DNA of 64,000 nucleotides from an uncultured Gemmatimonadales bacterium (lineage in GTDB: Bacteria; Actinomycetota; Acidimicrobiia; Spongiisociales; UBA5794): contig CAXMRC010000150.1 of assembly GCA_964195945.1 (NCBI GenBank), forward strand, positions 16,400 through 80,399. The letters run 5' to 3'. Each line of letters begins with the position of its first letter. Positions within the stretch are counted from its first letter, which is position 1. Positions 5,333 to 57,167 of the stretch are shown piece by piece. Under the pieces are notes generated by a model. The model saw only the letters and a list, made by a program, of their open reading frames with translations. It was not told the DNA's origin and searched no databases. A program made the position numbers and the translations under genes.

Positions 5333-5370
5333 GAGCGAGAGGCTAATAGCGGACCAGGCGCTATCACCCA

Positions 5371-6540: not shown

Positions 6541-6586
6541 CCCGGTCAACAGTACCGATGAAGCGGGTGTCATATACTCGTCCGCT

Positions 6587-36676: not shown

Positions 36677-36852
36677 ATGAACTCAGATTCTCGCGAGCCG
36701 AGACCTTAGCCTCAATCCACCGACCCGGATCCGCTGCTGAAACGCCCTAAGGAGCAGGGGCGTCGCCCGATCACGCCATTGTTGGAGAAAGGCGCTTGGC
36801 TTCCACTCGTCACCACTGCAGATCTAGTTCAGGATCGGCTCAAGTCGATCGG

Positions 36853-37524
36853 TCATGACCGGTTCCACGGTGCACGGCCTGTAGGCCCGGTGACGCTGAT
36901 GACTTCTTCTCGCCCCCGCAGCGACATGATGATTCCATCCATCGCTTCTGCGCCAACTCCGACTAGCTCGCAGCTGAGGCGTCTTCTCCCGTCGTCTTCG
37001 ATCATGGAAATCCGGTGCACCTGGGCGCCCATGGCGTTGAGCGTCTCGAACAACGGGGTCAAGGTGCCATGACCGGGTTGGTATTCGATTTCGAGCGGCT
37101 GGACTGTGCCTCTACGGAGGTAGCCCCGTATCGGCGCAAAGCCGACCATCGCGAACAATGCCATCATCAATGCAGCAGGGGCAACGAGGTACAAGCCAAA
37201 ACCCGCAGCCACGCCGAGAGCGGCAGCAAACCACAGCGTTGCTGCGGTGGTGATCCCGGTCATCGTGAAGCCGCTTTTGATCATACCGCCGGCCCCAATA
37301 AAGCCGATCCCGGTCACCACTTGCGCGGCGACTCTGGTCAGGTCGGTTCCGTCTGCTGAGACCGAGGCCCCGGCAACAGAAAACAGCGCGGCGCCGGCAG
37401 CCACCAGAGTGTGGGTGCGAAGGCCAGCGGTCTTGTTTTGGACTTCTCTCTCAATGCCCAGGGCAGCCCCAAGGATCGCAGCTAGCGCGACGCGCGCGAT
37501 CATTTCAAGATCTGTCAACTGCAT
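36853..37524 (-). CDS. mgtC: MgtC/SapB family membrane protein
   Basis: ARVALAAILGAALGIEREVQNKTAGLRTHTLVAAGAALF. Confidence 0.85.
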   Translation of the reverse strand: MQLTDLEMIARVALAAILGAALGIEREVQNKTAGLRTHTLVAAGAALFSVAGASVSADGTDLTRVAAQVVTGIGFIGAGGMIKSGFTMTGITTAATLWFAAALGVAAGFGLYLVAPAALMMALFAMVGFAPIRGYLRRGTVQPLEIEYQPGHGTLTPLFETLNAMGAQVHRISMIEDDGRRRLSCELVGVGAEAMDGIIMSLRGREEVISVTGPTGRAPWNRS

Positions 37525-37563
37525 CGATATCTCACTTGGCTAGCCGAGCCACTGCTGGGGCGG

Positions 37564-37662
37564 CTAGCTGCTCTGCTTGGATTTCTTGGCGGCGCGCTTT
37601 TCTTTCAGGCTCTTTGCCGCGACCTTTTTGGTCGCCCTGCCGCCTTTGTCTTTCGATGCCAT
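37564..37662 (-). CDS. Unannotated 32-aa lysine-rich small ORF (MASKDKGGRATKKVAAKSLKEKRAAKKSKQSS) immediately upstream of mgtC
   Basis: ATG at 37662 preceded by GGAGGT at a 5-nt spacing; TAG at 37564-37566. It is below the 60-aa cutoff of the ORF track, and the table lists a different frame (37532..37744). Confidence 0.4.
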   Translation of the reverse strand: MASKDKGGRATKKVAAKSLKEKRAAKKSKQSS

Positions 37663-37869
37663 GATTACCTCCAGGCCGGCCACTGGAGTTAGTGGCCGTC
37701 ACCATTCTCCCACGGTGAGACCGCAACTGGCCCCATTTTGTCAAACGCGAGCCACACGCCGCCGCGTCGAAGGCGACGTTGGGCGTCTAATTGGATCAAC
37801 AATCCGCACCATGATTGGGTCGCGATTCTGTGCTGCGAGTAACATCGTCTCAAGCGATCGGAGGGGAAG

Positions 37870-38907
37870 ATGAGAAGGATCTCGACACGTTGGCCTAATG
37901 GAATCATCCTATTAGTGGTGGTCGCAACTCTTAGCCTTGCTGCCTGTGGTGGTGATGACGACAGTGCTGCGGGCGACGGAGGCACAATCTCGGTCTTTGG
38001 TGCTTTCGCCACTCAGATCGAAGAGCCATGGGACGGTGTGATCCATCGAGCGCTGCTCGCTGAGGCCGAGGCAGGCAACATCGAGTACGACTTCACAGAT
38101 GACATCGGCTACAGCGGCGACATGGAACGGATCCTCACTGAGGTGGCCGAGCAGGACAAACCGGACATCATCTTTGGTGATGCGTTTGGCAATGAGGATG
38201 CGGTGCGCCGTGTGGCGTCGAACTATCCGGATATCGCTTTTGCGTTTGGTTCAGGCGGCGGACCGGCAGATCCCAATTTCTCGGTATTTGACAACTGGAT
38301 CCACGAGCCGGCCTACCTCGCCGGGATGCTGGCCGGGGGTCTGACCGAGACCAACGTGGTTGGCGTGGTCGGCGGGTATCCCGTCCCAGAGGTAAACCGG
38401 ATCACAAACGCGTTTGTGGCCGGTGCCCAGGAAACCAATCCCAATGTCGAGGTGAAGGTCACCTTCATCAATAGCTGGTTCGACCCCGCCGCAGCCAAGG
38501 AGGCTGCACTTGCTCAGATCGATGCCGGAGCCGACGTGATGTACGCCGAGCGGTTTGGCGTAATCGAAGCATCGCAAGAGCGCGGAGCATTCTCGTTCGG
38601 GAACATGTCCGACCAAGTGGATCTCGCTCCTGACAGCGTCATCTCCAGCGTCGTATGGGACATGGCGCCAACTGTGGCTTATGTCATCGATCAGGTTGGC
38701 GCCGGTGCGTACACCTCACAGGATCTGAAAGATTTCAGCATGCTGGCCAAAGGCGGTGCGTCACTTGCGAGCATCAATACGGATCTAGCCGTTCCCCAGG
38801 ATCTTCTCGATCTGGTTACCCAGAGAGAGGCTGAGATCAGGAGCGGTGCGTTCCGCGTCAATATCAACGAGGCTGAGCCAGCCGGGTCGGTCCTTGTTGG
38901 CGGGTGA
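37870..38907 (+). CDS. BMP-family (PnrA-like) nucleoside-binding lipoprotein, ABC substrate-binding component
   Basis: Lipobox LSLAAC. NWIHEPAYLAGMLAG, VVGVVGGYPVPEV, INSWFDP. Confidence 0.85.
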   Translation: MRRISTRWPNGIILLVVVATLSLAACGGDDDSAAGDGGTISVFGAFATQIEEPWDGVIHRALLAEAEAGNIEYDFTDDIGYSGDMERILTEVAEQDKPDIIFGDAFGNEDAVRRVASNYPDIAFAFGSGGGPADPNFSVFDNWIHEPAYLAGMLAGGLTETNVVGVVGGYPVPEVNRITNAFVAGAQETNPNVEVKVTFINSWFDPAAAKEAALAQIDAGADVMYAERFGVIEASQERGAFSFGNMSDQVDLAPDSVISSVVWDMAPTVAYVIDQVGAGAYTSQDLKDFSMLAKGGASLASINTDLAVPQDLLDLVTQREAEIRSGAFRVNINEAEPAGSVLVGG

Positions 38908-40411
38908 GGCTTCCGCTGTTCCGGTAGTCGAGCTCAAGTCGATCAGTAAGAGCTTTGGCTCGCTCCTAGCGAACGATCGAATCGATCTTTCGCTACGACG
39001 CGGCGAGGTCCATGGGGTGCTCGGTGAGAACGGTGCGGGTAAGACCACCCTGATGCGGGTGCTCTACGGACTGACCCGACCCGAGAGCGGAGAGATCAGA
39101 GTCGACGGTGCGGCGGTAACTATCGCGTCACCGAAGGACGCGATCCGTGTCGGAATCGGGATGGTCACTCAGCACTTTGCTCTGGTAAAACCCATGACCG
39201 TTACCGAGAACGTAATCCTCGGTCGTGCCGGTGGCCCGGTTCTTGATCTCGATCGCGCAAGACGGCTGGTCGGTGAAGCGGCCGAGAAATACGGGCTTCA
39301 CGTCGACCCCGAGCAGCGGCTGGGAGATCTCTCGGTCGGCGAGCAGCAGCGGGTTGAGATCCTGAAAGCACTGTATCGCGAGTGCCGGGTCTTGATTCTT
39401 GACGAGCCGACCGCAGTGCTCACACCTCAGGAAATCCGCGCTCTGTTCGAGACGCTCAACAAACTGCGGGAAACCGGCATGGCGATCGTATTCATCAGCC
39501 ATAAGCTTCCCGAGGTGATGGCGCTGACCGACCGTGTCACGGTCCTTCGTCGGGGAAAGGTTGTCAACACTGTGGTGACCGCAGCCACAGATGCTGCCGG
39601 TCTGGCCTCCTTGATGGTGGGGAGGCCGGCAACAGCGCCCGAGCAGAAAGTTGCGAGCGACCCCGGACCCGTGGTTCTTGAGGTCGTCGGTCTCTCCGCA
39701 TTGGGGAAGTTGGGACGCCCTGCGCTATCGAATGTCAGTTTTGCGGTTGGTTCGGGCGAGATCCTCGGTTTCGCAGGGGTCTCGGGCAACGGCCAAACGG
39801 AATTGGCGGAGGTGCTCTCAGGCATGAGGACCGCAACCTTCGGTTCGGTTCTGTTGGAGGCACATGACATCGCCGGTTCTACCCCACGGCAGATTGTGGC
39901 CGCCGGCATGGGCCGCATCCCCGAGGATCGCCACGAGGCTCTCGTCGGGGAGATGTCCGTTGCCCACAATCTCATCCTCGAGCATCTGGATGAGGTCGGA
40001 AGCCGCTCGGTTCTCGACCGGCAAGGCATTCGCTCAAATGCCGTGGATCTGATCGACCGTTTTGCGATCAAAGCTGGGCCCGACGACCTGGTCAAGACAC
40101 TCTCCGGTGGCAACATTCAGAAAGTTCTTCTTGCTCGAGTGTTGGCTAGAGACCCGAAAGCCCTCGTCATCTCTCAGCCGACGCGCGGACTCGATGTCGG
40201 GGCCACGGAATACGTGCGCTCTGAGCTCTTGGCGCAGCGGGCCCGCGGGGCCGCGATCGTCTTGATCAGCGAGGACCTCGACGAACTCATGGAACTGTCG
40301 GACCGGTTGGTGGTGCTGTACAGCGGACGCATCGTCGGCGAACTATCGGCTGCGGCAGCAGATCGCGATCACATCGGGCTCTTGATGGCAGGCCATACGG
40401 AGGTGGCTTGA
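38846..40411 (+). CDS. ABC transporter ATP-binding protein with duplicated ATPase domains
   Basis: Two Walker A (GENGAGKTT; GVSGNGQTE), signature LSVGEQQR/LSGGNIQK, Walker B ILDEPT. The start is uncertain: the ATG at 38846 overlaps the BMP gene by 62 nt, and in-frame TTG codons lie at 38894 and 38897. Confidence 0.85.
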   Translation: MRSASISTRLSQPGRSLLAGEASAVPVVELKSISKSFGSLLANDRIDLSLRRGEVHGVLGENGAGKTTLMRVLYGLTRPESGEIRVDGAAVTIASPKDAIRVGIGMVTQHFALVKPMTVTENVILGRAGGPVLDLDRARRLVGEAAEKYGLHVDPEQRLGDLSVGEQQRVEILKALYRECRVLILDEPTAVLTPQEIRALFETLNKLRETGMAIVFISHKLPEVMALTDRVTVLRRGKVVNTVVTAATDAAGLASLMVGRPATAPEQKVASDPGPVVLEVVGLSALGKLGRPALSNVSFAVGSGEILGFAGVSGNGQTELAEVLSGMRTATFGSVLLEAHDIAGSTPRQIVAAGMGRIPEDRHEALVGEMSVAHNLILEHLDEVGSRSVLDRQGIRSNAVDLIDRFAIKAGPDDLVKTLSGGNIQKVLLARVLARDPKALVISQPTRGLDVGATEYVRSELLAQRARGAAIVLISEDLDELMELSDRLVVLYSGRIVGELSAAAADRDHIGLLMAGHTEVA

Positions 40412-40412
40412 T

Positions 40413-41498
40413 ATGGGGGCGTTGCGACGCGGCTCGATTACAGCTGGCATCATCCTCGGCGCGACCTTCGTCATAACAACCCCGTTCATACTGATGGCGG
40501 GGGCCAACCCCTTTGCCGCCTACGCCGAGTTCTTGGTTCTGCCGTTGACGTCGCGGTTCTCGTTCCTAGAGGTTTTGGTCGCTTCGATTCCTCTTATTCT
40601 CACTGGTCTTGCGGTCGCCCTGGCGTTCCGTGCGGGCTATTGGAACATCGGAGCCGAGGGACAGCTGCTGATGGGTGCGGTGGCCGCGGCCGGCGTGGGG
40701 ATGGCGGCTGGCGATCAGCCACGGGTTCTGGTGCTTCTGGCGGTCGTTGTTGCCGGTGCTCTGGCCGGTGCACTGTGGGCGCTGGTTCCCGCTTTGTTGC
40801 GGGTAAAGCTTGGCATAGATGAAGTGGTGACAACGCTACTTCTCAACCCGGTTGCCTTGCTGGTGGTCACCGCGCTGCTCAACGGTCCATGGCGGGACTC
40901 GGAGACCGGGTTCCCCGAATCAGACCGTATCGCTGAATCGGCTCAATTCCCGGTGTTGGTCAGCCGTTCCCGAGTCCACCTTGGTTTTCTCATCGGGGTT
41001 GCTATCGCCGGCATCTTGTGGTTTGTCCTGGCTCGCACGGTGGCTGGTCTTCGCATCTCAGCTGTCGGACTCAGTCCCAACGCCGCTCGCTTCGCTGGTA
41101 TCGATGTGGGGAGGACACTGCTCGTTGCCGCTCTCGTCAGCGGCGCCATTGCCGGCATTGCAGGAGCCAGCGAGGTAGGCGGCATCCAGTACCGACTGAC
41201 TGGTGGCCTCTCCCCCGGTTTCGGCTACACCGGGATTGTGGTTGCAACGCTCGGGGGTTTGGCTATGCCAACCGTTGTTCTTGCTGCGATCCTGCTCGGC
41301 GACCTCAACGTGGGTGCAGGCACCGCCGGCCGCGTTCTTGACATTCCGTCGCAGCTTGGCGACGTCGTGCAAGCCACTGTGTTGCTCGTCACTGTCGGAG
41401 TCTTGGTCTACCGCCGGTATCGGCAGCGTCGCCCGACAGTCGCTCTTCCCGAAGTGCCACTCCCCGAAGTGTCAGTTCCCGAGGCGGAGGCACCATGA
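40413..41498 (+). CDS. ABC transporter permease
   Basis: 10-TM BPD-type permease, translationally coupled to the ATPase gene. Confidence 0.85.
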   Translation: MGALRRGSITAGIILGATFVITTPFILMAGANPFAAYAEFLVLPLTSRFSFLEVLVASIPLILTGLAVALAFRAGYWNIGAEGQLLMGAVAAAGVGMAAGDQPRVLVLLAVVVAGALAGALWALVPALLRVKLGIDEVVTTLLLNPVALLVVTALLNGPWRDSETGFPESDRIAESAQFPVLVSRSRVHLGFLIGVAIAGILWFVLARTVAGLRISAVGLSPNAARFAGIDVGRTLLVAALVSGAIAGIAGASEVGGIQYRLTGGLSPGFGYTGIVVATLGGLAMPTVVLAAILLGDLNVGAGTAGRVLDIPSQLGDVVQATVLLVTVGVLVYRRYRQRRPTVALPEVPLPEVSVPEAEAP

Positions 41499-42400
41499 GC
41501 TTTGTCTTTGAGGTGCTTGCAGCGACGTTCCGCATTGCCACTCCCCTGGTTTATGGGACGATCGGCGAAACCTACGCAGAAAAGGCCGGGATTCTGAATC
41601 TCGGGATCGAGGGCACGATGTATGCCGGGGCGTTCTTTGGTTTCGCCGCAGCCTCACAAACTGGCTCACTCGGACTTGGAATCCTTGCCGCTGTCGGTGT
41701 CGGGCTCCTCGCCGGCGCGCTCATGGCATTCCTGAGCGTGACAGTTGGTACCAGCCAGCATGTTGCCGGTATCGGCATCACCCTGGGCCTTATCGGTCTC
41801 TCCGAGTTCATCAACCGGCTCTACTTCGGCAGCTCCGAGGGCATACGTCGCATTGAGCCATACCGGCTGTTGGAACCGTTCGGGTCAAACAACCTCTTCA
41901 GCCAATACGCGATGACGTACGTTGCGTTTCTGATTGTTGCCCCGCTGGCGTGGTGGGTGCTGCGTTCCACCTCGTTCGGTCTTGCGGTACGTGCGGTCGG
42001 GGAGAACCCGGAGGCTGCCGATGCTGCCGGGCTATCGGTTGCCCTATATCGATATGCCGCACTGATGATCGGTGGTGCATTGATGGCGGTCGGCGGAGCC
42101 TTTCTTACTCTGGCGACGCTCGGCACGTTCACGCTCGACATAATCGCGGGCAGGGGCTGGGTTTGTATCGCGCTTGTTATCTTCGGACGATGGCGGATAT
42201 GGCGGGGAGTCTTTGGGGCCCTGGTGTTTGCTGCCGTTTTCTCGCTGCAGTTGCGGCTCCGGATTCTGGCGGGGTGGGACGCAATTCCGTTCGAGTTGCT
42301 CTTGGCGCTCCCCTATCTGGTCGTGATCGCGGCTCTGGCAGCCTCCGGTCGTAACGTTGAATACCCCGGAGCCTATCTGAAGCACTACAGGAGAGAATGA
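41495..42400 (+). CDS. ABC transporter permease
   Basis: Second permease, ATGA overlap with the first. Confidence 0.85.
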   Translation: MSFVFEVLAATFRIATPLVYGTIGETYAEKAGILNLGIEGTMYAGAFFGFAAASQTGSLGLGILAAVGVGLLAGALMAFLSVTVGTSQHVAGIGITLGLIGLSEFINRLYFGSSEGIRRIEPYRLLEPFGSNNLFSQYAMTYVAFLIVAPLAWWVLRSTSFGLAVRAVGENPEAADAAGLSVALYRYAALMIGGALMAVGGAFLTLATLGTFTLDIIAGRGWVCIALVIFGRWRIWRGVFGALVFAAVFSLQLRLRILAGWDAIPFELLLALPYLVVIAALAASGRNVEYPGAYLKHYRRE

Positions 42401-42849
42401 TGAACGATTGGGACGTCCGTTGTCTAGATGAAGCGATTGCCCAGGCGAAAACTGGGTTGGCGGAGGGTGGCATTCCGATCGGGGCTGCGCTCGCCACCGC
42501 GGAGGAAATCCTCGGAGCCGGGCACAACCGGCGAGTTCAGCTTGGCTCGGCGATTCGCCATGGGGAGACCGACGCGCTGGAGGTTGCGGGTCGGCAGCCG
42601 GCATCTGTGTACCGCACCGCAACTATGTACACCACCCTGTCGCCTTGCGATATGTGCACCGGTGCGATTCTTCTCTATGGAATTCCAAGGGTTGTCATCG
42701 GCGAAAACCGAACCTTCATGGGGGCCGAAGACTTGCTGCGCAGCCGCGGGGTCGAGGTCGTCATCGCCGACAACTCCGAGTGCATAGCCATGATGGAGGG
42801 CTTCATCGCAGAGAGCCCCGCGCTGTGGAATGAGGACATCGGAGAGTAA
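42397..42849 (+). CDS. Cytosine deaminase of the yeast Fcy1 type (CDA-fold, zinc)
   Basis: HGETDALE (Zn ligand His and catalytic Glu), TMYTTLSPCDMCTGAILLYGIPRVVIGEN, and C-terminal ALWNEDIGE closely match Fcy1 (TLYTTLSPCDMCTGAI..., WFEDIGE). Confidence 0.85.
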   Translation: MMNDWDVRCLDEAIAQAKTGLAEGGIPIGAALATAEEILGAGHNRRVQLGSAIRHGETDALEVAGRQPASVYRTATMYTTLSPCDMCTGAILLYGIPRVVIGENRTFMGAEDLLRSRGVEVVIADNSECIAMMEGFIAESPALWNEDIGE

Positions 42850-42865
42850 AACCTGGTTGTTCCGG

Positions 42866-43450
42866 TCAGGGTGTTTGCGAAGCGGACCCATCGCGCAGCC
42901 ACGGAGGACCACCGCCACCACCGCTGGGTGTTGTTGCTACCGCCACCTCGGGTGCGTCCGCTTCCCACGATCTGAGCAGGCCTACGACCGCCTGGATCTC
43001 CGACTCGGTCATTCGGTCTCCCCACGGTGGCATCGCGGTATCAGGTACGCCGAGCGTGATGATCTGCTGGATCGCTCCGTCGGGTGTCTCCTCGAGGAAC
43101 CCTTTGACGTTGAGTGCGGGCGCACGTGGGGTCCCTTGCCCGAGCGGTCCATGACACTGTGCGCAATTGGTCGAATAGAGAGCTCCCCCCAGCTCCAAGG
43201 ACTCCGCAGGGGTGTAGTTGATTTGCAAAAACACCCCGGTGGTCACGAGCATCATGACTAGGAGAGCCGCAAGACCTCCAAGGCCCCAGGTGTAGCTAAA
43301 GCGGAGCGTCCTTTTCGGGATGCGCGACGGGTGCAGGTGCAGTACCAACGTGTCGAGCACCATCCGCGTACGACCACGATCGTCCTTCGGCACCGGTGGT
43401 GGTGCCAGCCTCTCCCGGATTCGCTGCAGGCTTGAGTCGTCACGCTCCAT
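42866..43450 (-). CDS. Membrane-anchored mono-haem class I cytochrome c
   Basis: CAQCHG haem-binding site and a distal Met (DTAMPPW). One TM helix preceded by LHLHPSRIPKRTLRFSYTWGLGG, which resembles cytochrome b helix A. Start uncertain (ATG at 43450 or 43363, or upstream at 43603). Confidence 0.7.
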   Translation of the reverse strand: MERDDSSLQRIRERLAPPPVPKDDRGRTRMVLDTLVLHLHPSRIPKRTLRFSYTWGLGGLAALLVMMLVTTGVFLQINYTPAESLELGGALYSTNCAQCHGPLGQGTPRAPALNVKGFLEETPDGAIQQIITLGVPDTAMPPWGDRMTESEIQAVVGLLRSWEADAPEVAVATTPSGGGGGPPWLRDGSASQTP

Positions 43451-43609
43451 GTGGCGGGGATATTGGCTTGCGCGAATACCCGGCGGCTTGCCAGGCTTGC
43501 AACTTTGGCGGCTCGTGCTGGCGTTCCTGCACCCGCGAGCGACTGCCGCGCCCGCGGCCAGCTCCACGTCTACGGACCGGCCAGAGTTCGAGTCGGCGGC
43601 CATGTGGTC

Positions 43610-44695
43610 CTAGCGGGTACCGGAACCGTTTCCCTCCTCGGCGATTAGCCGTTGCAGCAGAGATTCTGTCGACTCGAGATGCTGTTCACCCGACTCGCCC
43701 AGCAGTCCCCTCTGAGTCAATGTGTAGAGAAATCCGAGAGCTGGAACCGCCAGCAGTCCAGCCGCCATGAAGGCAACCATCAGAGCAACCAACACTGCAT
43801 CTGATGCGGCGTATTCATCTACTGTCGCCGACTTCTCGAGTAGATAGGGGTATTGACCCGCCCCCCATCCCCACAACACAGTCGCGGTCGCCACCACCGC
43901 GGCCAGACGGGCCTGGACATACTGTCTTCGCTGCAACAGGACCAGGGCCGCCACTCCACCTGCCGCGGACGCGATCATGAGCGGTATGCCACGTACCGAA
44001 ACGAGTCCGTCGAATAGGTCGGGGGCGTCGATGGCGAGTACCGCGATGCCACCGACGGCGAGGACCCCCATCGCCACTCCGGTCGCCATGGCCCGCTTGC
44101 GAAAGTACTCAGCGATGTCTACCGATCCCTCTGAGATGGCGTCCCTTCCAGCCAGAACAGCCGCAAGGAATGCCGTCGCACCGACGGCGAGCGCACCTCC
44201 CAGCAGCGAGGTTGGGTTGAACCAAGAGGTAAGAGGATCGCCCAGCGCGTTTCCCAACGGGACCCGCCCGGAGGCCACTCCCCCGGCGACGGTGCCCAAG
44301 AAGAATGGCGTGAGTATCGATGATGCGGCAAAAGTCGCACCGAGGGCGCGCCGACGACCCAATGTGGCTGCCCATTTTCGGAACGCAAAAGCCGCACCGC
44401 GCAAGATGATCCCGATGGCCGCGATGGTCAGCGGGATGTACATAGTTGTGGCAATGGCGACGAAAGGCTCGGGAAACGCGGTCCATAGATAGACCAGTAC
44501 AAATATCAGCCAGACGTGGTTCGCCTCCCATACCGGTCCGATAATTCGTTCCAGGAATGACCGCACCCTGGAACCCTTTTCGGCATCTCCGGCGAGGAGA
44601 TCCCAGAACCCCGCGCCGAAGTCTGCCCCGCCAAAGATGCCGTAGGCGGTGATACCGAGCCAGATAACAACGAGTACGACATCTGCAAGCGTCAT
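43610..44695 (-). CDS. cydB: Cytochrome bd ubiquinol oxidase subunit II
   Basis: MTLADVVLVVIWLGITAYGIFGGADFGAGFWDLL at the N-terminus, 8 TM. ATGA overlap with cydA. Confidence 0.85.
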   Translation of the reverse strand: MTLADVVLVVIWLGITAYGIFGGADFGAGFWDLLAGDAEKGSRVRSFLERIIGPVWEANHVWLIFVLVYLWTAFPEPFVAIATTMYIPLTIAAIGIILRGAAFAFRKWAATLGRRRALGATFAASSILTPFFLGTVAGGVASGRVPLGNALGDPLTSWFNPTSLLGGALAVGATAFLAAVLAGRDAISEGSVDIAEYFRKRAMATGVAMGVLAVGGIAVLAIDAPDLFDGLVSVRGIPLMIASAAGGVAALVLLQRRQYVQARLAAVVATATVLWGWGAGQYPYLLEKSATVDEYAASDAVLVALMVAFMAAGLLAVPALGFLYTLTQRGLLGESGEQHLESTESLLQRLIAEEGNGSGTR

Positions 44696-46062
44696 AGTGA
44701 CACCGGAGGGTTGGGACCATACGGCACTGGGGCTTCCTCTCCAGCCGCGAACCGAACGGCGATTCGCCGCAGGACGGCGACTGTAATGATCCCGAGACCG
44801 ACGTAGATCATGCTGATGACTGTTGCCGACACCGCAATGCCGTCGGCTGCTGTGACGGCGTCAGTCGTCCGCACGACGCCGTACACAATCCAGGGCTGAC
44901 GTCCAACCTCTGTTGTTATCCAGCCCATCTCCATGGCGACAATGGCCGCTAGTCCGGCACCAGACGCCAATCGCCAGAACCACATCGATCCGGGCAGGCG
45001 CCGTCGTCGCCACCACACGAATGCAAACCAGGCCGAGAGGCCCACAAGCCCGGTGCCGAGGCCGACCATCACCTGGAACGCCAGGTGTACGACGTTGGCG
45101 GGAGGCCGCTCGTCTTCGGGAACTGAATCGAGTCCCGGTACCTCTCCGTTGAAATCCCTGGTACCCAGCCATGACGCCAGTTTCGGGATCTCTATGGCAC
45201 CAACTACCTCCCCGTCAACGAGGACGCCGCCTAAAGCTAGCGGCGCACCTTCCTGGGTCTCGGGTAGCAGCTCGATAGCTGCAAACTTGGCAGGTTGCGC
45301 CTCGATGAGCCGGCGGGTAGCGACATCGCCTACCAGGACCTGCAGCGGTGCGGCGATCGACGCCAGCACAAACGGAATGACGAACCCCAGCCGGTGAATC
45401 CGGTCGCGTCTCCCTTTGAGCCAACCCACCGCATAGACGCTCGCCACCATAAAACCGGAAACCATGTAGGCCGCGAGCAGCATGTGGGCATACTGAATCC
45501 CGACCGCCGGATTGAACATGGCAGCCAGCGGATTGACATCGACGATCGAGCCATCAGTTGCGATCGTGAATCCGGCCGGCGAGTTCATCCATGCGTTGGC
45601 CGACAGGATGAAGAACGACCCGGCGATTCCTGCGAGAACGATGGGAAACAGGGTCAAGTAGTGCACCCGGGCGGACAGGCGTTTCCAGTCGTATAGGTAG
45701 ATCCCGATGAAGATGGCCTCTAGGAAGAAGGAGACGCCCTCCAGCGCGAACGGCAATCCGATCACGTCCCCATACGGTCCCATCAGGCCCGGCCACAGGA
45801 TCCCCATTTCGAAGCTGAGAATCGTCCCCGAAACGGCGCCTACCGCGAACAGAACCGCCATCACCTTCGACCAGCGCTTTGCCAGAATGAGAGCAGCTGC
45901 ATCTCCACGCCTGAGCCCACGCCGGTGGGCGATGAGTGTGATCAGTGGGAAGCCGATCCCCAGCGCAGCGAAGATGATGTGGAACCCGAGACTGATCGCC
46001 ATTTGATAGCGGGCCGCGGCCAAATTGGTGTCGGCGGCAAGAGCGACTAACCCATCAGTCAT
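44692..46062 (-). CDS. cydA: Cytochrome bd ubiquinol oxidase subunit I
   Basis: ARYQMAISLGFHIIFA, Q-loop, GRQPW. Start at MTDGLVAL with GGAGG SD; the upstream extension in the table was trimmed. Confidence 0.9.
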   Translation of the reverse strand: MTDGLVALAADTNLAAARYQMAISLGFHIIFAALGIGFPLITLIAHRRGLRRGDAAALILAKRWSKVMAVLFAVGAVSGTILSFEMGILWPGLMGPYGDVIGLPFALEGVSFFLEAIFIGIYLYDWKRLSARVHYLTLFPIVLAGIAGSFFILSANAWMNSPAGFTIATDGSIVDVNPLAAMFNPAVGIQYAHMLLAAYMVSGFMVASVYAVGWLKGRRDRIHRLGFVIPFVLASIAAPLQVLVGDVATRRLIEAQPAKFAAIELLPETQEGAPLALGGVLVDGEVVGAIEIPKLASWLGTRDFNGEVPGLDSVPEDERPPANVVHLAFQVMVGLGTGLVGLSAWFAFVWWRRRRLPGSMWFWRLASGAGLAAIVAMEMGWITTEVGRQPWIVYGVVRTTDAVTAADGIAVSATVISMIYVGLGIITVAVLRRIAVRFAAGEEAPVPYGPNPPVSL

Positions 46063-46329
46063 TGCAATAGCCTCCGCGAGACAGGACGACCGTCGGTAAG
46101 CCCGGCAGTCGATCTGATGACCACGGTAGCCTGGCGCCGGTGCTACAAAATCCGCGACATTCCGGTGCAATGGACAAACCATCGCGTTGAGCGGCACGCT
46201 CCGCTACATCGCCCAAAACGTTGCCAGAGCCTTCTGGCGGACCATGCCCGCCAGAAATCGGCACGAGCGTTCGCTGGTCGGCGCTTGGATGTTGACACGC
46301 TCGAAGAAGTCGCAATCGCCGGGATATGT

Positions 46330-46699: not shown

Positions 46700-47605
46700 T
46701 CAATAGCCCACTAGCCCGACACAGCTGAATGTCGCTTCAATGGACGCAGGCGGGTCCGCAACCGAGGCCGAGAAGCTCCCGGTGAACAGCCACTCTTCAT
46801 TCGACACGGACTCTGCCTGATTCAGGACGAACGCGCCATCGATCTCCTGGAGATCCCACACGGATTCGTCAAGAGCAGGGTCTGCGGCGAACACCCAGAC
46901 CTGGCCTTCATAGGCCCCGGGTTCGACACCTGAGTCGTAGCTGGAGACCGAGGACTGAAAGTCGGGGCCTTCCAGGTAGATGTTTATCGAGCCGGTCTCG
47001 AGGTCGCCATACATGTCGCACGACACCTCATACTCTCCGCTCAGGGTCTCTTCGTAGGTGCCGCCCCCGGCTGAGATCGTCTGGGTGGCCGCAGATGACA
47101 CGTCACCACTGCTGTCGGAATCGTCAACGGCAGCTGAAGATTCCGGCTCCTCGTCGAACGAAATCCCGCATTCGCGCACCATATATCCTTCGACGCGGAC
47201 GGTTGCCTCCTCGAATGCCAGAAGTTCGACCTCGTCGAGTGGCTCGGGTCCGGTGGGATCCTTTGCCCACTCGCCGAAACTCGTCATGGCGGAGATCATC
47301 AGGGCAAAATCGGCCTCTAGTTCGGCGGGGGCGGCGCTGCCCAGGCGAAGGTAGATGTCCTTGAGAAATTCGTACAGGTCAAGGGCTTCCAGAGTCGGAT
47401 CATCCTCATCCAGGGCACCCAGTTCCTCCGATAGATTCACGACTGTTTGACAGAAGTCGGATCCCCCTCCGGTCGGAAGAGCTGCGCTCTCGGCTGCCGC
47501 ACTGACACCGGCATCAGAATCAGCAGCAACCGCATCACTCGAACCTCCCCCGCACGCCGCCAGTATTAGGGCGACTACCACGGCCACCAATCGCGTCCGT
47601 GCCAT
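46700..47605 (-). CDS. Hypothetical lipoprotein (acidic, Asp/Ser/Glu-rich)
   Basis: MARTRLVAVVVALILAACGGGSS lipobox. No domain recognised. Start trimmed from the table ORF. Confidence 0.6.
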   Translation of the reverse strand: MARTRLVAVVVALILAACGGGSSDAVAADSDAGVSAAAESAALPTGGGSDFCQTVVNLSEELGALDEDDPTLEALDLYEFLKDIYLRLGSAAPAELEADFALMISAMTSFGEWAKDPTGPEPLDEVELLAFEEATVRVEGYMVRECGISFDEEPESSAAVDDSDSSGDVSSAATQTISAGGGTYEETLSGEYEVSCDMYGDLETGSINIYLEGPDFQSSVSSYDSGVEPGAYEGQVWVFAADPALDESVWDLQEIDGAFVLNQAESVSNEEWLFTGSFSASVADPPASIEATFSCVGLVGY

Positions 47606-47697
47606 CACTCTGTCCCCTGGCGGAGATTGTTCGGGTTGCCTCAGCTTCAATGATTTCATCGCTTGCCTCTCTTTCTGTGCCGAAAGGTCTCGGGACC

Positions 47698-47718
47698 GTG
47701 CACAAACGAGTGTGCAAC
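47698..47718. promoter_or_regulatory. Inverted repeat TGCACA-N6-TGTGCA upstream of the lipoprotein gene 46700..47605
   Basis: Sequence gTGCACAaacgagTGTGCAac, about 95 nt upstream of the ATG at 47605, in the 299-nt intergenic region after the USP gene. Confidence 0.3.
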
Positions 47719-47904
47719 AGAGTCCCAAACGATCACCAAACTCTGCAGGACCTTCCACCTGGCTGCTGGTAACCAGCGCTCCGGCTCCCGATGGCTAGCG
47801 ACGGGCTCGTGGCGCGACCATGCAGAATCCCCGATACCCACTCGGGGACGTTCGATGGTCGGCCCGACGGGTTTAGAGCCCGCTCTCGACTCCTCCAGCC
47901 GCCA

Positions 47905-48747
47905 TCAGGGGATGACCGCAAGAGGCAGCGGCGAGTGGCGGACGAGGTACGAGGCGGTGTCGCCAAGCCCACTGAATTGACCGGCACCTCTGCTGCCGAT
48001 CACGATCAGCCCGGCACCATCGCTTGCGGCAGCCTCGGGGAGCCCGACCCGGGGATCGGTGTTGCAAACTACGACCTTGTACTCAACATCGTTATCGCGG
48101 AATTGCACCAAGGCTTCCTCGGCGTCGGCTCTGACGTCTTCGTCAAAACGTTCGACGTGTCCCGGAGGCTTCTCACACCCAGGGTCGGCGCATCGAACAA
48201 TCGTGGCCGGCAAGCCTAGATCGGCACAGAACGCAGCCGACCATGAAAGGACGCGGCGGGCAACTGCCGAACAGTCCACACCAACGAGAATCCGGGTCAG
48301 GGGCGGAGGGCTCATGGTCCACCGCCTCGGGACGAGAACAAGCGGTCGGTCGGTCGTGAACAGGAGGCGTCGACTGACCGAACCAAGCAGCAGTCCGGAC
48401 AGCGGCCCCAGGCCCCGGGTACCCACCACCAGAATCGATGCGTCCAGCTCATTGACAGCGTCGAGCAGCACCGTGGCAGCCGGTCCCCGCCGGGCAACGA
48501 TGTCAACGTCATCAAGCCCGACGTCACGGAGGGATTGCGCCGCGGCAGATGCCACATGGGTATTCATCTCTGAGACATCGTCATCGACCCCTGGCAAGGC
48601 TTTCGAGGCCACCCGGGTCCACGCCGCCACCGCCCTTACCGGCACACCCAATCGGCGTCCGATCGCCACGGCCCACGCGGCCGCGATATTGGCATTGAGG
48701 GAATCGTCGACGCCGACGAGGACGGCGCTTCGTGTGTAGTCATTCAT
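47905..48747 (-). CDS. Universal stress protein, tandem UspA domains
   Basis: Two Usp ATP-binding G-x2-G-x9-G-S/T motifs (VVGTRGLGPLSGLLLGSVS; IVIGSRGAGQFSGLGDTAS). GGAGG SD. Confidence 0.85.
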   Translation of the reverse strand: MNDYTRSAVLVGVDDSLNANIAAAWAVAIGRRLGVPVRAVAAWTRVASKALPGVDDDVSEMNTHVASAAAQSLRDVGLDDVDIVARRGPAATVLLDAVNELDASILVVGTRGLGPLSGLLLGSVSRRLLFTTDRPLVLVPRRWTMSPPPLTRILVGVDCSAVARRVLSWSAAFCADLGLPATIVRCADPGCEKPPGHVERFDEDVRADAEEALVQFRDNDVEYKVVVCNTDPRVGLPEAAASDGAGLIVIGSRGAGQFSGLGDTASYLVRHSPLPLAVIP

Positions 48748-48866: not shown

Positions 48867-51407
48867 TCATGAGCCATCGTTTCTTTGAGCCGCGCGGCGC
48901 GACCAGATCTCGGCACCGGCGATAGTGACGATGAGCGCCGCGGCCACGAAGCCCAAGCCGGCCCCATCGAGAGGGACGAGGCCGAGCATCGTGCGGAGTG
49001 CGGGGACTGTGATTGTGAGTATTTGCAGCCCGACACTGGCGACGATGATGACGTTGAGCGTCCGGTTGCGGATGGGCTTGGCTGCTATCCGGCGAGCCGG
49101 GTACACAAATGCCAACTGGGCGAGCGATTCGTAGAGAAACACTGCGGTCTGGGTCGCGGCACCTGCGTAGGCCAGCGCCGGAAACGTGAAGAACAGCAGC
49201 AGCCCGATCCCGGCCTTGAGGAACCCCGTTGTCAGGATAAATCGGATGCCGGCTCGGGTGAGAAGCGGCGCCGACGGGGGCCGGGGGCGCTGTGTCATCA
49301 TCCCCGCGTTACGGTCCATCCCCAGCGCCAGAGCGGGTGGCCCGTCGGCGATGATATTGATCCACAGCAACTGGACGGCAATAAGAGGGACAAGGAGGTT
49401 GCCGCCCTCGTCGCGCAGATTGAACAGGGCTGCGCCGGTTACGCCGATCGCGATCAGCAGTACCAGCGCCACGTTGGTAGAGAATAGGAAGCGGATGAAT
49501 TTGAGGATGTTGGCGTAGATGCTCCGACCTTCTTCGACCGCGGCGGTGATCGTGGCGAAGTTGTCGTCGAGGAGCACGAGATCAGCGACTTCACGGCTGA
49601 CGTCGCTCCCTCGTTGGCCCATCGCCACTCCGATGTCTGCCCGTTTCAGCGCTGGTGCATCGTTGACACCGTCTCCAGTCATGGCAACGATTTCACCGTT
49701 TGCCTTGAGTGCTTCCACCAGCGCCAGTTTGTGTTCCGGATTGACGCGGGCGAAGACGTCAACGTAGTTCACTTCGCGGGCCAACTCTTCACTGCTCAGT
49801 TGGTCGAGTTGTTCTCCGGTCATCACCGTGTCGGTGGCTATCCCGACGGTGTTGGCGATGGCCAACGCGGTGGCGGGATGGTCTCCCGTAATCATCAGCA
49901 CCCGAATACCCGCCTCCTGAGTAGCGTTGATGGCGCCAACTACCTCGGAGCGTGGCGGATCCCACAGCGAGACGGAACCGAGCCACTCGATGTCAGAGTC
50001 AGTTTCACCCGGTGCCCAGGCCAGCCCAAGGACTCGGTAGCCCTCTGCGGCGCCGGCTTCGATCTTGTCTTCCCAGATCGACCGCTCCTCCGGTGTCAGT
50101 CGGCTTCGCTCCAATAGCGCCTCAGGTGCCCCTTTGAGATAGGACACCGGCCCTTCCTGGTCACCCACGGTGACCCGCATAAACCGCCAGGCTGAATCGA
50201 AGGGTCGTACCGATTGCCGCTGGTAGCGGCTTCGGGTCTCGGCGGGGTCTACACCATGTTGTGCGGCGTAGGTGTACAGACCGATCTCGAGGGGATCCCC
50301 GGAACCACCCCCAGGCTCAGCATCGGCTGCGAGCACCATCGCAAGCAGCGCTCGCTCATCGTCCGATGAGTCCAGATCGCTGACAGTCATCGTGTTTTCG
50401 GTGAGGGTCCCGGTTTTGTCGGTGGCGATCACGGTCACCGAACCGAGCGCTTCCACAGCGGCGAGTCGTCTCACGACGGCCTTGCGCGATGCCATTCGCT
50501 CGGTGCCAAGTGCCAACGTCAGGGTCAAGACGGCGGGCAGACCTTCCGGTACCGCCGCGACCGCTACCGCAACGGCAAAGAGCAGAGCCTCGTCTATTCG
50601 GTCGATCCCTTCGATCCCGACACCGGCCACCACCAGCACTACGGCGAGGGCAGCCACCCAGCGGGCGATGCGATGGCCAAAATGCGCCATCCGACGCTCT
50701 AGGGGTGTCCCTTCGACCTCGACGTCGGCCAACATGCTCGCGATCCGCCCCATGGCAGATGCTGACCCTGTTCTGGTGACCACCAGCCAGGCATGGCCAC
50801 GCACTGCGAGCGTTCCTGAGAAGACCTCCTGTCCGACAGCCTTTTCGACTGGAACCGACTCGCCGGTCAGCATCGACTCGTCAACCATGAGACCCTGGTC
50901 ACCGGTCAGTTCCCCATCGGCGGGAACCCGGTCACCTGCCTCGACTCGAACCAGGTCCCCAGGGACCACCTCGGCCGCCGGGAGGTGCACCAAACGACCA
51001 TCGCGACGGACCGATACCAGCGGCGCGGCCAATTCTTTCAGACGTGCCAGTGCGTCTTCCGCCCGGTACTCCTGCCACACTCCCATGACCGTGTTGAACG
51101 CCAGGATCACCAGGATCGCTATCGACTCAATTGGCCATCCGGTCGCTCCTTCAAAAACCCAAACAACGGCGTCGAACGCCAAAGCGAACAACAAGATGTA
51201 GATGATTGGGCTACGTAGTTGCCGCAGCACTCGCTCCCACCACGGCGTCGGCCGAGCTTCGGGTAGCACGTTGGCGCCAACCTCGACCAGAAGCACAGCT
51301 GCCTGGTCCGAGCTCAACCCCCCGCCGCTCCATGGGGTCGCATAGTCGACCGGGTCGGCCCTCAATGTGGAATCGTCTCGATATTCGAACGGTGGCAACG
51401 AGTCCAT
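48867..51407 (-). CDS. P-type cation-transporting ATPase, type II (SERCA/CtpF-like, probable Ca2+ or Mg2+)
   Basis: [50 protein letters not shown]. 10 TM. Confidence 0.9.
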
Positions 51408-51413
51408 GCGGTT

Positions 51414-52370
51414 TCAGCGCGCATCTCGGCGCGGCTTCACTGGAGTGACGAACCCTTCGGGCTTGACCGCCAACACCGAGCACCGCACCGACTGCAAGAT
51501 GGTCTCGGCCGTGTTGCCCATGATGAGACCGCTCAGCCCGGCCCGAGCCACTGTTCCCATGACAATGAGTCCGATGTCGAGCCGCTCAGCCAGGAGCGGC
51601 AACTCGCGACGTGGTTCGCCCGACACCATATGGATCGTCGCTCTCATCTCGTCCACATGGTGGCGTGCCACCAGTGCGCTGAGCTGTTCGCTATGTGCAG
51701 CCTCGGCTTCGCGAACCATCACATCGACAATGGCTCCCGGCATTTGCACGTATGGCGAGGTACGCAGCGTGGCCTCGCCGTCCAAGCTCCAGGCGTGTCC
51801 CACATGCAGCTCACCATCTTTCCGGCTACACAGCGAAGTCGCCAGGTCCATCGCTAGGTCGTTGAGGCCATCACGAATCGGGTCTTCCGGATCGGGGTCC
51901 ACCAGGGCCAGTACCTGCAGCTTGCGGGCTTGAGACGGTCGCATCACCCAGACCGGTACCGGGCACTTCCGCAGCACATGCATCACGCCGCTGCTCAGTT
52001 GACAAGTGTTCCCTGTCTCGGGACCAGGCTCCCCCAACATCACGAGGTCGTGGCCAAATTCGAGGACCCGCTGAATGACCTCGATAAACGGCTCACCAAC
52101 CGCGGCCATCACCTTCACTTCACTCCCACCCCGAGCGTTCTCGACCATGCGCCGCAGCTGCTGTTCCCGCTCACCAACCAGCGCCGCCTCGACATCGACA
52201 ACCCGACCCTCAACCTCGACTCGCCGATGCCGTCGAGGTATCCGCGCAACTACGTCCATCACCGTCAATTCAGCCTGGTTGACATCGGCGAGCTCGACGG
52301 CGGCCCGAAGGGTCAGCGGCTCCAGATGCCCCGGAGATCCCGCTACCAGAATGCTCTTGAACCTATCCAT
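51414..52370 (-). CDS. Universal stress protein, tandem UspA domains
   Basis: Two Usp domains (SILVAGSPG...; ...MGTVARAGLSGLIMGNTAE). AAAGGA SD. Stop 6 nt before the ATPase ATG. Confidence 0.85.
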   Translation of the reverse strand: MDRFKSILVAGSPGHLEPLTLRAAVELADVNQAELTVMDVVARIPRRHRRVEVEGRVVDVEAALVGEREQQLRRMVENARGGSEVKVMAAVGEPFIEVIQRVLEFGHDLVMLGEPGPETGNTCQLSSGVMHVLRKCPVPVWVMRPSQARKLQVLALVDPDPEDPIRDGLNDLAMDLATSLCSRKDGELHVGHAWSLDGEATLRTSPYVQMPGAIVDVMVREAEAAHSEQLSALVARHHVDEMRATIHMVSGEPRRELPLLAERLDIGLIVMGTVARAGLSGLIMGNTAETILQSVRCSVLAVKPEGFVTPVKPRRDAR

Positions 52371-52409: not shown

Positions 52410-52724
52410 TTATCCAGCGCAAGCTCGGCACAGAGCTGTTGCGGGCAAGGCTGCGAGTCGTTCGGCCGCAATCGACGTTCCGCACGTCTCGCACGAGCCG
52501 TAGCGACCGGAGTCAATCCGGTCGAGCGCTTCATCTAGCGCAGCGAGCCGGCCCTCGATGGCATCGGCTTGGAGCGCCGCTTCGTCATCGGTGACATCAT
52601 GCGGCTCGTAGTCGAGTCGACTGGTTGAAGCCACCCTCAGATCCCGATGCAACCGCGTCAATCGGTCGCGCTCATCTAGGAGAAGGGATTGCCGCCTCCA
52701 CGCGGATTGGGAGCGCACTCTCAT
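52410..52724 (-). CDS. TraR/DksA-family C4-type zinc-finger protein
   Basis: GSCETCGTSIAAERLAALPATALCRACA, a CxxC-x17-CxxC finger after a coiled-coil region. Confidence 0.75.
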   Translation of the reverse strand: MRVRSQSAWRRQSLLLDERDRLTRLHRDLRVASTSRLDYEPHDVTDDEAALQADAIEGRLAALDEALDRIDSGRYGSCETCGTSIAAERLAALPATALCRACAG

Positions 52725-56624: not shown

Positions 56625-57167
56625 TCAGGGGCACAAGCCCTCCGCTCCGGAGGCGCAGAACTCGGCGTGGCCGCCGATGATCGTGGCGAGAACGTCTATT
56701 TCCGGGATCGCATCGACCGCGACTTCGAGCGGGTTCGCTGAAAGCACGACGAAGTCGGCGTATTTCCCAGCCACGATGCTGCCGATGACGTCCTCCTGAT
56801 GCGCGGCGTACGCGCCTCTGATGGTCAGCATCTCAAACGCCTCTTGTACGGTGAGCCGTTGCGAAGCCTGCCATAGCTCGGGGACACGGCCGTCGTATGT
56901 CGTTCGGGTCACGCCTTGGTGCAACGCATCCATCGCGCGCCCGGTATAGCTTTCCCCCTCGCCGCCGGTACGCCACGGGGTACAGCACCACGGTACGTCG
57001 GTGTTGGCGATCAAGTAGATCCCGGAGTCGATCAAGTCCCGCCATCGGTTGGCCAACTGCTGTTGCTCGAGTGGGATCATCCGTGCGAACGACTCGTCCT
57101 GGATAGAGGCTGACGAGTTGAGCAGCTGGATGGAACCAAGGATTCCGAGCTCGGCCGTGTTCTTCAT
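56625..57167 (-). pseudogene. C-terminal fragment (about 180 aa) of an amidohydrolase-3 paralog; N-terminal catalytic half absent
   Basis: GSIVAGKYADFVVLSANPLEVAVDAIPEIDVLATIIGGHAEF parallels the C-terminus of the neighbouring amidohydrolase (GSIQVSKVADLLVLANDLFD...VTMIDGVVQY). Only 66 nt separate it from the upstream gene, so there is no room for the missing 350 aa. Confidence 0.55.

Follow-up and report, generated by a model that had tools for sequence, protein, structure and literature searches.

The 64 kb stretch of DNA from an uncultured bacterium analysed here (the window) carries the two genes of a cytochrome bd oxidase and, behind them on the same strand, a reading frame that combines a membrane anchor with a single haem c motif. 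This arrangement raises the question of whether the frame encodes a cytochrome that exchanges electrons with the oxidase. The first-pass annotation had left two readings side by side, a fused remnant of a bc-complex subunit and a genuine partner of the bd enzyme. We consider it highly probable that the frame is a relic of an operon encoding cytochrome b, a Rieske protein and a trihaem cytochrome c, and that a lineage-specific rearrangement placed it behind cydAB.

Locus layout and class of the bd oxidase

The cydA gene (44692..46062, minus strand) encodes a protein of 456 amino acids that matches Pfam family PF01654 (3e-128). Its start was set by homology at the ATG at 46062 rather than at the start of the open frame at 46197, because CydA is 455–456 residues long in relatives. 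The gene for subunit II, cydB (43610..44695, minus strand; 361 aa; PF02322, 7e-56), overlaps the cydA stop by 4 nt. Its product shares 71–82% identity with CydB from uncultured relatives. Few of these have a named source; of those, P0149 (71%) is the closest and is labelled Acidimicrobiia, and the further ones are labelled Actinobacteria. Directly 3' of cydB lies the chimeric ORF, which in its longest form runs from 43603 to 42866 on the minus strand and has a single CxxCH haem domain; its stop codon is 16 nt from the end (42849) of a convergent cytidine deaminase gene. The Pfam matches, to PF01654, PF02322 and PF13442 respectively, confirm the earlier description of cydA and cydB followed by a co-oriented monohaem cytochrome c.

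How far the ORF lies from cydB depends on the start codon. The cydB TAG ends at 43610 and the longest frame opens at the ATG at 43603, which gives the 6-nt gap (GACCAC) described previously. However, tblastn matched the first 51 codons to none of the fetched loci, and they have a codon-usage score (-0.03) equal to that of non-coding DNA 5' of cydA and below those of 94% of in-frame windows of real genes, a comparison that concerns a short stretch. GC content at the second codon position is 0.67 here, against about 0.48 in genes. Homology to cytochrome b sets in at M52 (ATG at 43450). The absence of homologues, the codon score and the point at which homology begins together suggest that the 51-codon extension is probably non-coding and that translation probably starts at M52, in which case the 6-nt gap holds for the longest ORF only and the ORF begins 159 nt past the cydB stop. 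A consensus scan of this spacer (43451..43609, minus strand), which has no in-frame stop codon after the ATG at 43603, found neither a sigma-70-like promoter nor a terminator-like site, and the spacer contains no unusual RNA fold. An Rfam scan likewise detected nothing. Given the shared orientation and the lack of a terminator-like site after cydB, the chimeric ORF is likely to be co-transcribed with cydAB; this counts against regarding the ORF as a relic and nothing else.

It is this layout, with a same-strand cytochrome c gene 6 nt (longest ORF) or 159 nt (M52) behind cydB and no terminator-like site between them, that would favour a dedicated partner of the bd oxidase, co-transcribed with cydAB and giving electrons to the enzyme or taking them from it. 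The class of the oxidase argues otherwise. CydA scores 493 bits against chain A of PDB entry 9R2G, the AppC subunit of M. smegmatis bd-II, and in the alignment it retains H28, E108, E115, H193, M332, W381 and E385, residues whose roles include those of haem d, b558 and b595 ligands and of the proton-channel glutamate (PMC12994193). It also has the qOR-2 signature residue M21 and a Q-loop of the length found in 9R2G, with the motif QPAKFAAIE. The M. smegmatis enzyme uses menaquinol and contains no cytochrome c subunit (PMC12994193). CydA aligns with its counterpart over the full length, the two enzymes have the haem ligands, the short Q-loop, the signature methionine and the two-subunit core in common, and we found no difference between them that is relevant to the cytochrome c question. 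Judged by these features, CydA is an ordinary qOR-2 menaquinol oxidase, closest to a two-subunit menaquinol oxidase that has been verified biochemically, and CydAB would function as a menaquinol:O2 oxidoreductase with no need for cytochrome c.

Enzymes of the bd superfamily that use haem c do exist, and to this extent a partnership has a precedent. The known case is the OR-C family, in which subunit I carries CxxCH motifs in a C-terminal extension and lacks a quinol site (Murali, Gennis and Hemp; bioRxiv 10.1101/2021.01.16.426971). The window CydA is the opposite in both respects: it keeps the quinol site and has no CxxCH motif, and CydB has none either. In the literature on partnerships between bd oxidases and cytochrome c, OR-C was the sole case found, and it does not apply here.

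In approximately 170 loci that contain relatives of either half of the chimeric ORF, no cydA or cydB was found within 8–10 kb, and in five close cydAB relatives the genes 3' of cydB are other genes and do not include a cytochrome c. In one of these related loci (L091) cydB and the DUF3054 gene are separated by only 33 nt, whereas in the window they are 6.9 kb apart; blastn aligns positions 4660–6972 of that locus with window positions 46036–43724, and 7151–7745 with 36675–36072. The intervening block (36677..43609) is thus specific to the window's lineage. In addition to the bc relic it contains, by Pfam assignment, genes for MgtC (36853–37524, minus strand), a Bmp-type ABC transporter (37870–42400, plus strand) and the cytidine deaminase (42397–42849, plus strand). 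Because the block at whose edge the relic lies is missing between cydB and DUF3054 in close relatives, the relic's position behind cydAB is best explained as an accident of rearrangement rather than as operon design. The proposal of a genuine bd partner is therefore not sustained: the neighbourhood of the cytochrome varies and is never cyd-linked in the loci surveyed, the comparative data come close to refuting the idea, and we regard it as very improbable.

Two halves of the chimeric reading frame

Residues 52–132 of the ORF (43208..43450, minus strand) correspond to the cytoplasmic N-terminal region and helix A of cytochrome b and end in …NYTP. The stretch LHLHPSRIPKRTLRFSYTWGLGG (aa 88–110), immediately before the sole hydrophobic helix, had been likened to the N-terminal signature of cytochrome b, and the wider comparison bears this out. 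The segment is 72% identical to residues 1–71 of cytochrome b from L090 and 68% identical to residues 6–86 of that from L007. It matches the N-termini of cytochrome b genes by tblastn (E = 2–4e-31) and the N-terminus of cytochrome b in a phmmer search of 5.8 billion proteins (E = 5e-31). Weak matches were also obtained to positions 10–42 of the Pfam Cytochrome_B family (PF00033; 15.3 bits against a cutoff of 27.2) and to residues 28–67 of solved cytochrome b chains. None of the 14 scored columns, defined as those at least 90% conserved at the cytochrome b N-terminus, deviates in the segment. On the strength of these alignments, the resemblance is one of homology and not of chance. The alignment to cytochrome b stops at residue 86 of approximately 460.

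The single transmembrane helix, GLGGLAALLVMMLVTTGVFLQI (aa 107–128; 43220..43285, minus strand), was formerly helix A of cytochrome b. Its top 19-residue Kyte-Doolittle mean is 2.26, and there are four lysine or arginine residues in the 20 positions before it and none in the 20 after it. The chimeric protein is predicted to adopt an N-in, C-out topology, with the haem domain on the outer face of the membrane. An AlphaFold2 model contains a long helix spanning aa 97–122, which are residues 46–71 of the 194-aa form.

The second half (aa 133–237; 42893..43207, minus strand) is a cytochrome c domain of class I and corresponds to the last of the three haem domains in the parent cytochrome c. Residues 133–245 share 65–69% identity with residues 260–369 of trihaem proteins (E = 1e-38), and the match is to the third haem domain only. 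The PF13442 match reaches 46.5 bits against a cutoff of 27 (4.8e-12) and covers profile positions 4–65 of 68. The haem motif CAQCH (aa 147–151; 43151–43165, minus strand) is the sole CxxCH in any gene of the window. Met191, in TAMPPWG (43031–43033, minus strand), is presumably the axial haem ligand, as is general for the class I fold, and its column is conserved across the family alignment. All 37 cytochrome c columns that are at least 90% conserved are unchanged, and both CxxCH and the methionine of the MPxWG motif are intact.

In the AlphaFold2 model of the 194-aa form the domain has helices at residues 82–95, 115–121, 124–133 and 149–161 and a pLDDT of about 80–90. The best Foldseek matches of the model are cytochromes c552 and c6, the c domain of cd1 nitrite reductase and ActE of alternative complex III (ACIII), with target TM-scores of 0.6–0.75 against cytochromes c6 and c552; as modelled, the class I fold is complete. 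Cytochrome cy of Rhodobacter and ActE (PDB 6xkx, 6lod_E and 6f0k_E), chains of which are among these matches, likewise have an N-terminal transmembrane helix and an external haem c domain. Their anchors, however, bear no sequence relation to that of the window protein, which derives from helix A of cytochrome b and follows some 55 cytoplasmic residues that likewise come from cytochrome b.

Junction and parent operon

Genes for cytochrome b, Rieske and trihaem cytochrome c occur in this order on one strand in three inspected operons and in more than 50 further loci, so that the trihaem cytochrome c gene is two genes downstream of cytochrome b. Operons of this kind, such as those in L090 (GCA_024763085.1), L007 (GCA_039714175.1) and L008 (GCA_034435415.1), are frequent among Chloroflexota and also occur in certain Actinomycetota. 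Their cytochrome b N-terminus with helix A, and the third haem domain of their cytochrome c as far as the GGGGPPWLR motif, share 65–72% identity with the matching halves of the window ORF. These halves are joined at YTP|AES (43199..43216, minus strand), where cytochrome b residue ~86 passes to cytochrome c residue ~261. The join reads …NYTP|AESLELG… in frame; local alignments with cytochrome b end at P132 and those with the trihaem cytochrome begin at aa 130–133, which maps the junction to within 1–2 residues. This gives substance to the earlier suggestion of a fused bc-complex remnant, in that the 5' part of a cytochrome b gene now runs in frame into the sequence for the last haem domain of a trihaem cytochrome c.

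In three intact operons 2439–2450 nt separate the corresponding positions. We propose that one deletion of about 2.44 kb within the bc operon, which kept the reading frame, took out the part of cytochrome b beyond helix A, all of the Rieske gene and cytochrome c haem domains 1 and 2, fusing …NYTP to …ESLxLG of haem domain 3. That there was one deletion, and when it took place, we infer, since the nearest intact operons are only about 70% identical. In the operons compared, which do not include the true parent, both sites encode Pro-Thr, a possible microhomology at the breakpoint. GTDB genomes and JGI metagenomes, sets that do not contain the window's own genome, gave no sequence with more than about 66% identity to the ORF. 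Within the window, tblastn found neither a Rieske match nor a second match to cytochrome b. Compared with the parent operon, the ORF has lost cytochrome b from helix B onward, including the helical bundle with the four histidines that ligate haems bL and bH (in pairs on helices B and D) and both quinone sites, Qo and Qi, and its product cannot act as a quinol:cytochrome c oxidoreductase. Domain 3 and the sequence GGGGGPPWLR are the only parts of the trihaem cytochrome that are kept, domains 1 and 2 and the N-terminal transmembrane helix being absent. At its other end the parent cytochrome runs 40–60 residues further and terminates in a transmembrane helix (DWR.LLL…). This linker and anchor are missing from the chimeric ORF, which closes with a truncated tail, DGSASQTP and a stop codon (42866..42892, minus strand), and a second event would have removed the 3' end.

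The fusion is carried by a single contig, of 87 kb, of a metagenome-assembled, uncultured organism, and a misassembly might in principle produce such a join. We find this scarcely credible: the two segments have no repeat in common that might have led an assembler astray, the reading frame continues across the join, and analogous deletions occur in independent assemblies, one of them on nine contigs. This last is P0097 (L001–L006), a comparable fusion with a different junction, in which the first cysteine of CxxCH has been lost and a -1 frameshift interrupts the GGGGPPWLR run; it has kept its place behind a divergent DUF2202 gene, the position of the intact operon in L008 and L009. In another protein, P0129, the cytochrome b N-terminus is joined to the C-terminal transmembrane helix of the trihaem cytochrome. 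Since the junctions differ, P0097, P0129 and the window copy represent independent deletions of the same operon. All three fuse a 5' portion of cytochrome b to a 3' portion of the trihaem cytochrome c with loss of the Rieske gene; P0097 remains in the ancestral neighbourhood and P0129 keeps the anchor only, whereas in the window copy, which lies behind cydAB, an entire haem domain survives.

Searches for homologues with the same architecture used the full ORF against 5.8 billion proteins, the N-terminal half with the junction, and HMMER against 1.84 billion representatives. They recovered no intact counterpart, the window protein alone spanning both halves, although they did uncover the broken P0097. 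Two candidates, P0388 and P0392, were rejected as N-anchored dihaem cytochromes that lack the cytochrome b N-terminus. A cytochrome b split into several ORFs (P0127, in L173) was set aside, as the splits may be indel errors in a long-read assembly.

Status of the chimeric gene

The ORF contains no frameshift or internal stop and shows no decay, and its junction falls exactly at a domain boundary, so that a topologically sensible anchored cytochrome c results. Both observations count against a relic that is nothing more, but they fit a recent deletion as well as they fit a product kept by selection. Selection would imply a functional gene, a new N-anchored monohaem cytochrome c in which helix A has been exapted as a signal anchor, similar to cytochrome cy, the small anchored cytochromes c of Firmicutes or ActE of ACIII. 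Such a protein would shuttle electrons between another donor and an enzyme encoded elsewhere in the genome that depends on cytochrome c, and would not specifically deliver them to the bd oxidase. The intact frame, with all highly conserved positions of both halves retained, the complete class I fold with its CxxCH and methionine, and the placement of the junction are consistent with this, as are charges that predict an external haem domain, on the side of the membrane where maturation occurs. The haem-domain module also recombines elsewhere: P0297 is a monohaem derivative that arose by inter-domain deletion, and in P0278 domain 3 and the anchor stand at the end of an unrelated 951-aa protein. 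Nevertheless, the protein is a singleton, without an orthologue of its architecture in two very large protein collections, and the only comparable fusion is clearly broken. The C-terminal anchor of the parent has gone through a second event, the former redox partners, Rieske and cytochrome b, have been deleted, and the 64 kb window contains no other c-type cytochrome, no other oxidase and no cytochrome c maturation gene. A functional gene is thus an unlikely reading, if a less improbable one than partnership with the bd enzyme.

The relic may nonetheless still encode an anchored monohaem cytochrome c, because it is intact at every conserved position. Should it be expressed, through transcription that runs on from cydAB or starts in the former bc promoter region, helix A would serve as an N-in, C-out signal anchor, and a whole c-type haem domain would be exposed on the outer side of the membrane. 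Because cytochrome b and the Rieske protein have been lost, no reductase dedicated to this domain would remain. The boldest combination, in which a gene born by deletion in one step yields a helix A-anchored monohaem cytochrome that is co-transcribed with a qOR-2 bd oxidase and exchanges electrons with it, seems to us exceedingly doubtful. Such exchange, if it occurred, would for the first time show a canonical quinol-type bd oxidase taking electrons from a cytochrome c or passing them to one. By contrast, expression and haem loading of the relic would leave the present knowledge of cytochrome bd unchanged.

An eye-catching cluster of cydAB plus cytochrome c is, according to the relic reading, a deletion scar that a lineage-specific rearrangement has moved beside an oxidase, and this calls for caution, as annotation pipelines will still label the relic a c-type cytochrome. 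More broadly, the operon for cytochrome b, Rieske and trihaem cytochrome c has repeatedly been lost through internal deletions that leave chimeras of 5' cytochrome b and 3' cytochrome c, in at least three independent cases. The window copy would be a natural example of how one deletion can combine portions of two subunits into an anchored cytochrome with a viable topology and, if it is expressed and loaded with haem, it would offer a small case study of gene birth by deletion.

The cyd locus and its oxidase

Three consecutive minus-strand ORFs make up the locus. The first, cydA (46197–44692; Pfam PF01654, 3e-128), is assigned ATG 46062 as its start because the CydA proteins of its relatives are 455–456 aa long, and it overlaps by 4 nt with cydB (44695–43610; PF02322, 7e-56). 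The third, of 245 codons (43603–42866), begins 6 nt past the cydB stop and encodes a single cytochrome c domain above the Pfam threshold (PF13442, aa 137–207), together with a sub-threshold match at aa 102–134 to the extreme start of the Cytochrome_B profile. Its CAQCH is the sole CxxCH motif among all genes of the window. The domains, spacing and motif bear out the first-pass annotation, which had described cydA-cydB followed by a CxxCH-encoding ORF with a cytochrome b-like anchor.

Over its full length the window CydA aligns with AppC of Mycobacterium smegmatis bd-II (PDB 9R2G; 493 bits), a two-subunit qOR-2 enzyme for which oxidation of menaquinol has been demonstrated (PMC12994193). In this alignment the ligands of haem d (H28, E108), b558 (H193, M332) and b595 (E385) are all kept, and the two proteins also share W381, the qOR-2 signature methionine M21 and a short Q-loop. 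In the haem c-dependent OR-C branch of the superfamily, by contrast, subunit I carries CxxCH motifs and the quinol site is lost (bioRxiv 10.1101/2021.01.16.426971), whereas the window enzyme has no CxxCH in subunit I and has not lost the quinol site. As judged from its sequence, the oxidase is an ordinary one.

Few CydB relatives carry a source name; the closest of these (P0149, 71%) is named Acidimicrobiia and more distant ones Actinobacteria. Two further features of the window, a run of gcvH – FHA-domain – MerR-family genes and an F420H2-dependent quinone reductase, are in our view typical of Actinomycetota. The window is otherwise devoid of respiratory genes and of genes for c-type cytochromes or for cytochrome c maturation. 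Upstream of cydAB, on the same minus strand, are genes for two tandem-domain universal stress proteins (47905–48747 and 51414–52370), a P-type cation ATPase (48867–51407) and a DksA/TraR-type zinc-finger protein (52410–52724), and together with the bd-II-like oxidase these look like a hypoxia or stress cluster. Directly upstream of cydA is an acidic 352-aa ORF (46700–47758, minus strand) that has no Pfam match and whose hydrophobic N-terminal stretch is followed by a cysteine, as in a lipoprotein.

Further along, a 180-aa ORF (56625–57167, minus strand), perhaps a truncated amidohydrolase gene, covers no more of the Amidohydro_3 profile than its C-terminal third (positions 324–468 of 472); close by, 54518–56470 encodes a full-length amidohydrolase that carries an F5/8 type C domain. 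The segment 54000–64000 differs in composition, since its G+C rises to 0.63–0.65, especially at 60362–63925, and a 1187-aa cadherin/Big_9-domain ORF has a GC3 of 0.83, against 0.65–0.72 in most other window genes.

Origin of the third ORF in a cytochrome bc operon

Chloroflexota and some Actinomycetota are the source of nearly all homologues of the third ORF. These membrane proteins, 370–430 aa long, have a TM helix at each end, and between the two lie three haem c domains with three CxxCH motifs and then a GGGGPPWLR motif. They align to only the last 45% of the ORF, at 65–70% identity. Their genes sit in a conserved operon encoding cytochrome b (~450–466 aa), a Rieske protein (~165 aa) and the trihaem cytochrome c, an arrangement observed directly in three contigs and recovered by tblastn at more than 50 additional loci. 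When the three proteins of this operon were used as tblastn queries against the window, matches fell inside the third ORF only: cytochrome b residues 1–71 or 6–86 matched 43450–43208 (68–72% identity, E 2–4e-31) and cytochrome c residues 260–369 matched 43213–42869 (65–69% identity, E 1e-38), while the Rieske protein had no match in the window.

Pairwise alignments mapped the join between …NYTP and AESLELG…, which lies just beyond the outer end of helix A on the cytochrome b side and directly ahead of the N-terminal helix of haem domain 3 on the cytochrome c side. The two join points are 2439–2450 nt apart in three intact operons, and therefore one in-frame deletion of ~2.44 kb suffices to yield the third ORF. 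Such an event would have fused the N-terminal part of cytochrome b to haem domain 3 of the cytochrome c, and the earlier suggestion of a fused remnant of a bc-complex subunit is thereby upheld and made precise. That the fusion was instead created during assembly seems the least probable of the explanations considered. The ORF has neither the linker nor the C-terminal anchor of its parent; homology extends to the stop codon, and 16 nt beyond it a convergent cytidine deaminase gene ends. The missing 3' part indicates a putative second breakpoint.

In the pairwise alignment, cytochrome b homology begins at M52. The first 51 codons gave no match, have an unusually high GC at codon position 2, and score in codon usage the same as the non-coding stretch upstream of cydA. 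M52 (ATG 43450) is thus probably both the ancestral and the actual start, in which case the protein would have 194 aa and the spacer behind cydB would be 159 nt long. This spacer showed no promoter-like or terminator-like site, no stable fold and no match to an Rfam family.

Position behind cydAB

The first-pass annotation had also raised the possibility that the cytochrome is an electron-transfer partner of the bd oxidase. No cydA or cydB homologues were found in the 8–10 kb flanks of ~170 loci encoding relatives of either half of the ORF, and in five close cydAB relatives (CydB identity 71–81%) cydB is followed by different genes: DUF3054 in L091; a 135-aa gene on the opposite strand and then DUF3054 in the contig of P0133; an uncharacterised 311-aa gene without a Pfam match, overlapping the end of cydB, in L092 (L092:1797–2732); and an ECF sigma factor with a META-domain gene in L174 and L175. 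A neighbourhood that varies, with relatives that are never cyd-linked in these loci, is the pattern that the first-pass annotation had named as refuting a functional link; a partnership with the oxidase is unsupported and we regard it as very improbable.

Nucleotide similarity between L091 and the window covers cydAB (window 46036–43724) and picks up again at DUF3054 (36675–36072). As cydB and DUF3054 are only 33 nt apart in L091, a 6.9 kb block (36677–43609) is specific to the lineage of the window, through either insertion here or deletion in the relatives; it comprises MgtC, a four-gene Bmp/PnrA-type (nucleoside-like) ABC transporter, the cytidine deaminase and the bc-derived ORF, which forms its cydB-side edge.

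Relic or working gene

In two very large protein collections the two-part architecture is unique to the window protein, and independent truncations of the same operon occur elsewhere. In P0097 (nine contigs, L001–L006; gene L002:8001–8678) cytochrome b residue ~78 is joined to the RCHG of domain 3, so that the first haem-binding cysteine is lost and CxxCH broken, and there is a -1 frameshift in the GGGGPPWLR run; the gene has kept its place behind the divergent DUF2202 gene, which is also the neighbour of the intact operon in L008 and L009. In P0129 the cytochrome b N-terminus is fused directly to the cytochrome c C-terminal anchor. Both represent additional internal deletions of independent origin, in other metagenomes, and the operon seems prone to loss by this route. 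On these grounds we consider it likely that the third ORF is a relic whose position beside cydAB is fortuitous.

Other rearrangements also involve the haem-domain module of the trihaem cytochrome. P0297 (178 aa) resembles a monohaem derivative formed by deleting the stretch between the CxxCH motifs of domains 1 and 3, and P0278 (951 aa) is a large, unrelated extracellular protein that ends in domain 3 and the C-terminal anchor. At L173:5001–7620 a bc operon is broken into many short ORFs, through either real decay or indel errors of long-read assembly.

A functional anchored cytochrome c unrelated to the bd oxidase is an unlikely alternative to a relic, although several features of the product suggest that it may still be viable. 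The window copy has no deviations at the 37 haem-domain and 14 cytochrome b N-terminal columns that are at least 90% conserved. Its charge distribution predicts an N-in/C-out topology, the native orientation of helix A in cytochrome b structures, which would expose the haem domain at the outer face. In an AlphaFold2 model (mean pLDDT 70), a pair of N-terminal helices precedes one long TM helix, after which comes a class I domain of four helices; the structures that match the model best are cytochromes c552 and c6, the c domain of cd1 nitrite reductase and ACIII ActE. Conserved columns, predicted topology and model fit recent deletion and retained function alike. Beside a standard bd oxidase lies a chimeric ORF produced by deletion, a type of feature already known; what merits attention is that the bc operon repeatedly leaves such chimeras and that the copy in the window is unusually well preserved.
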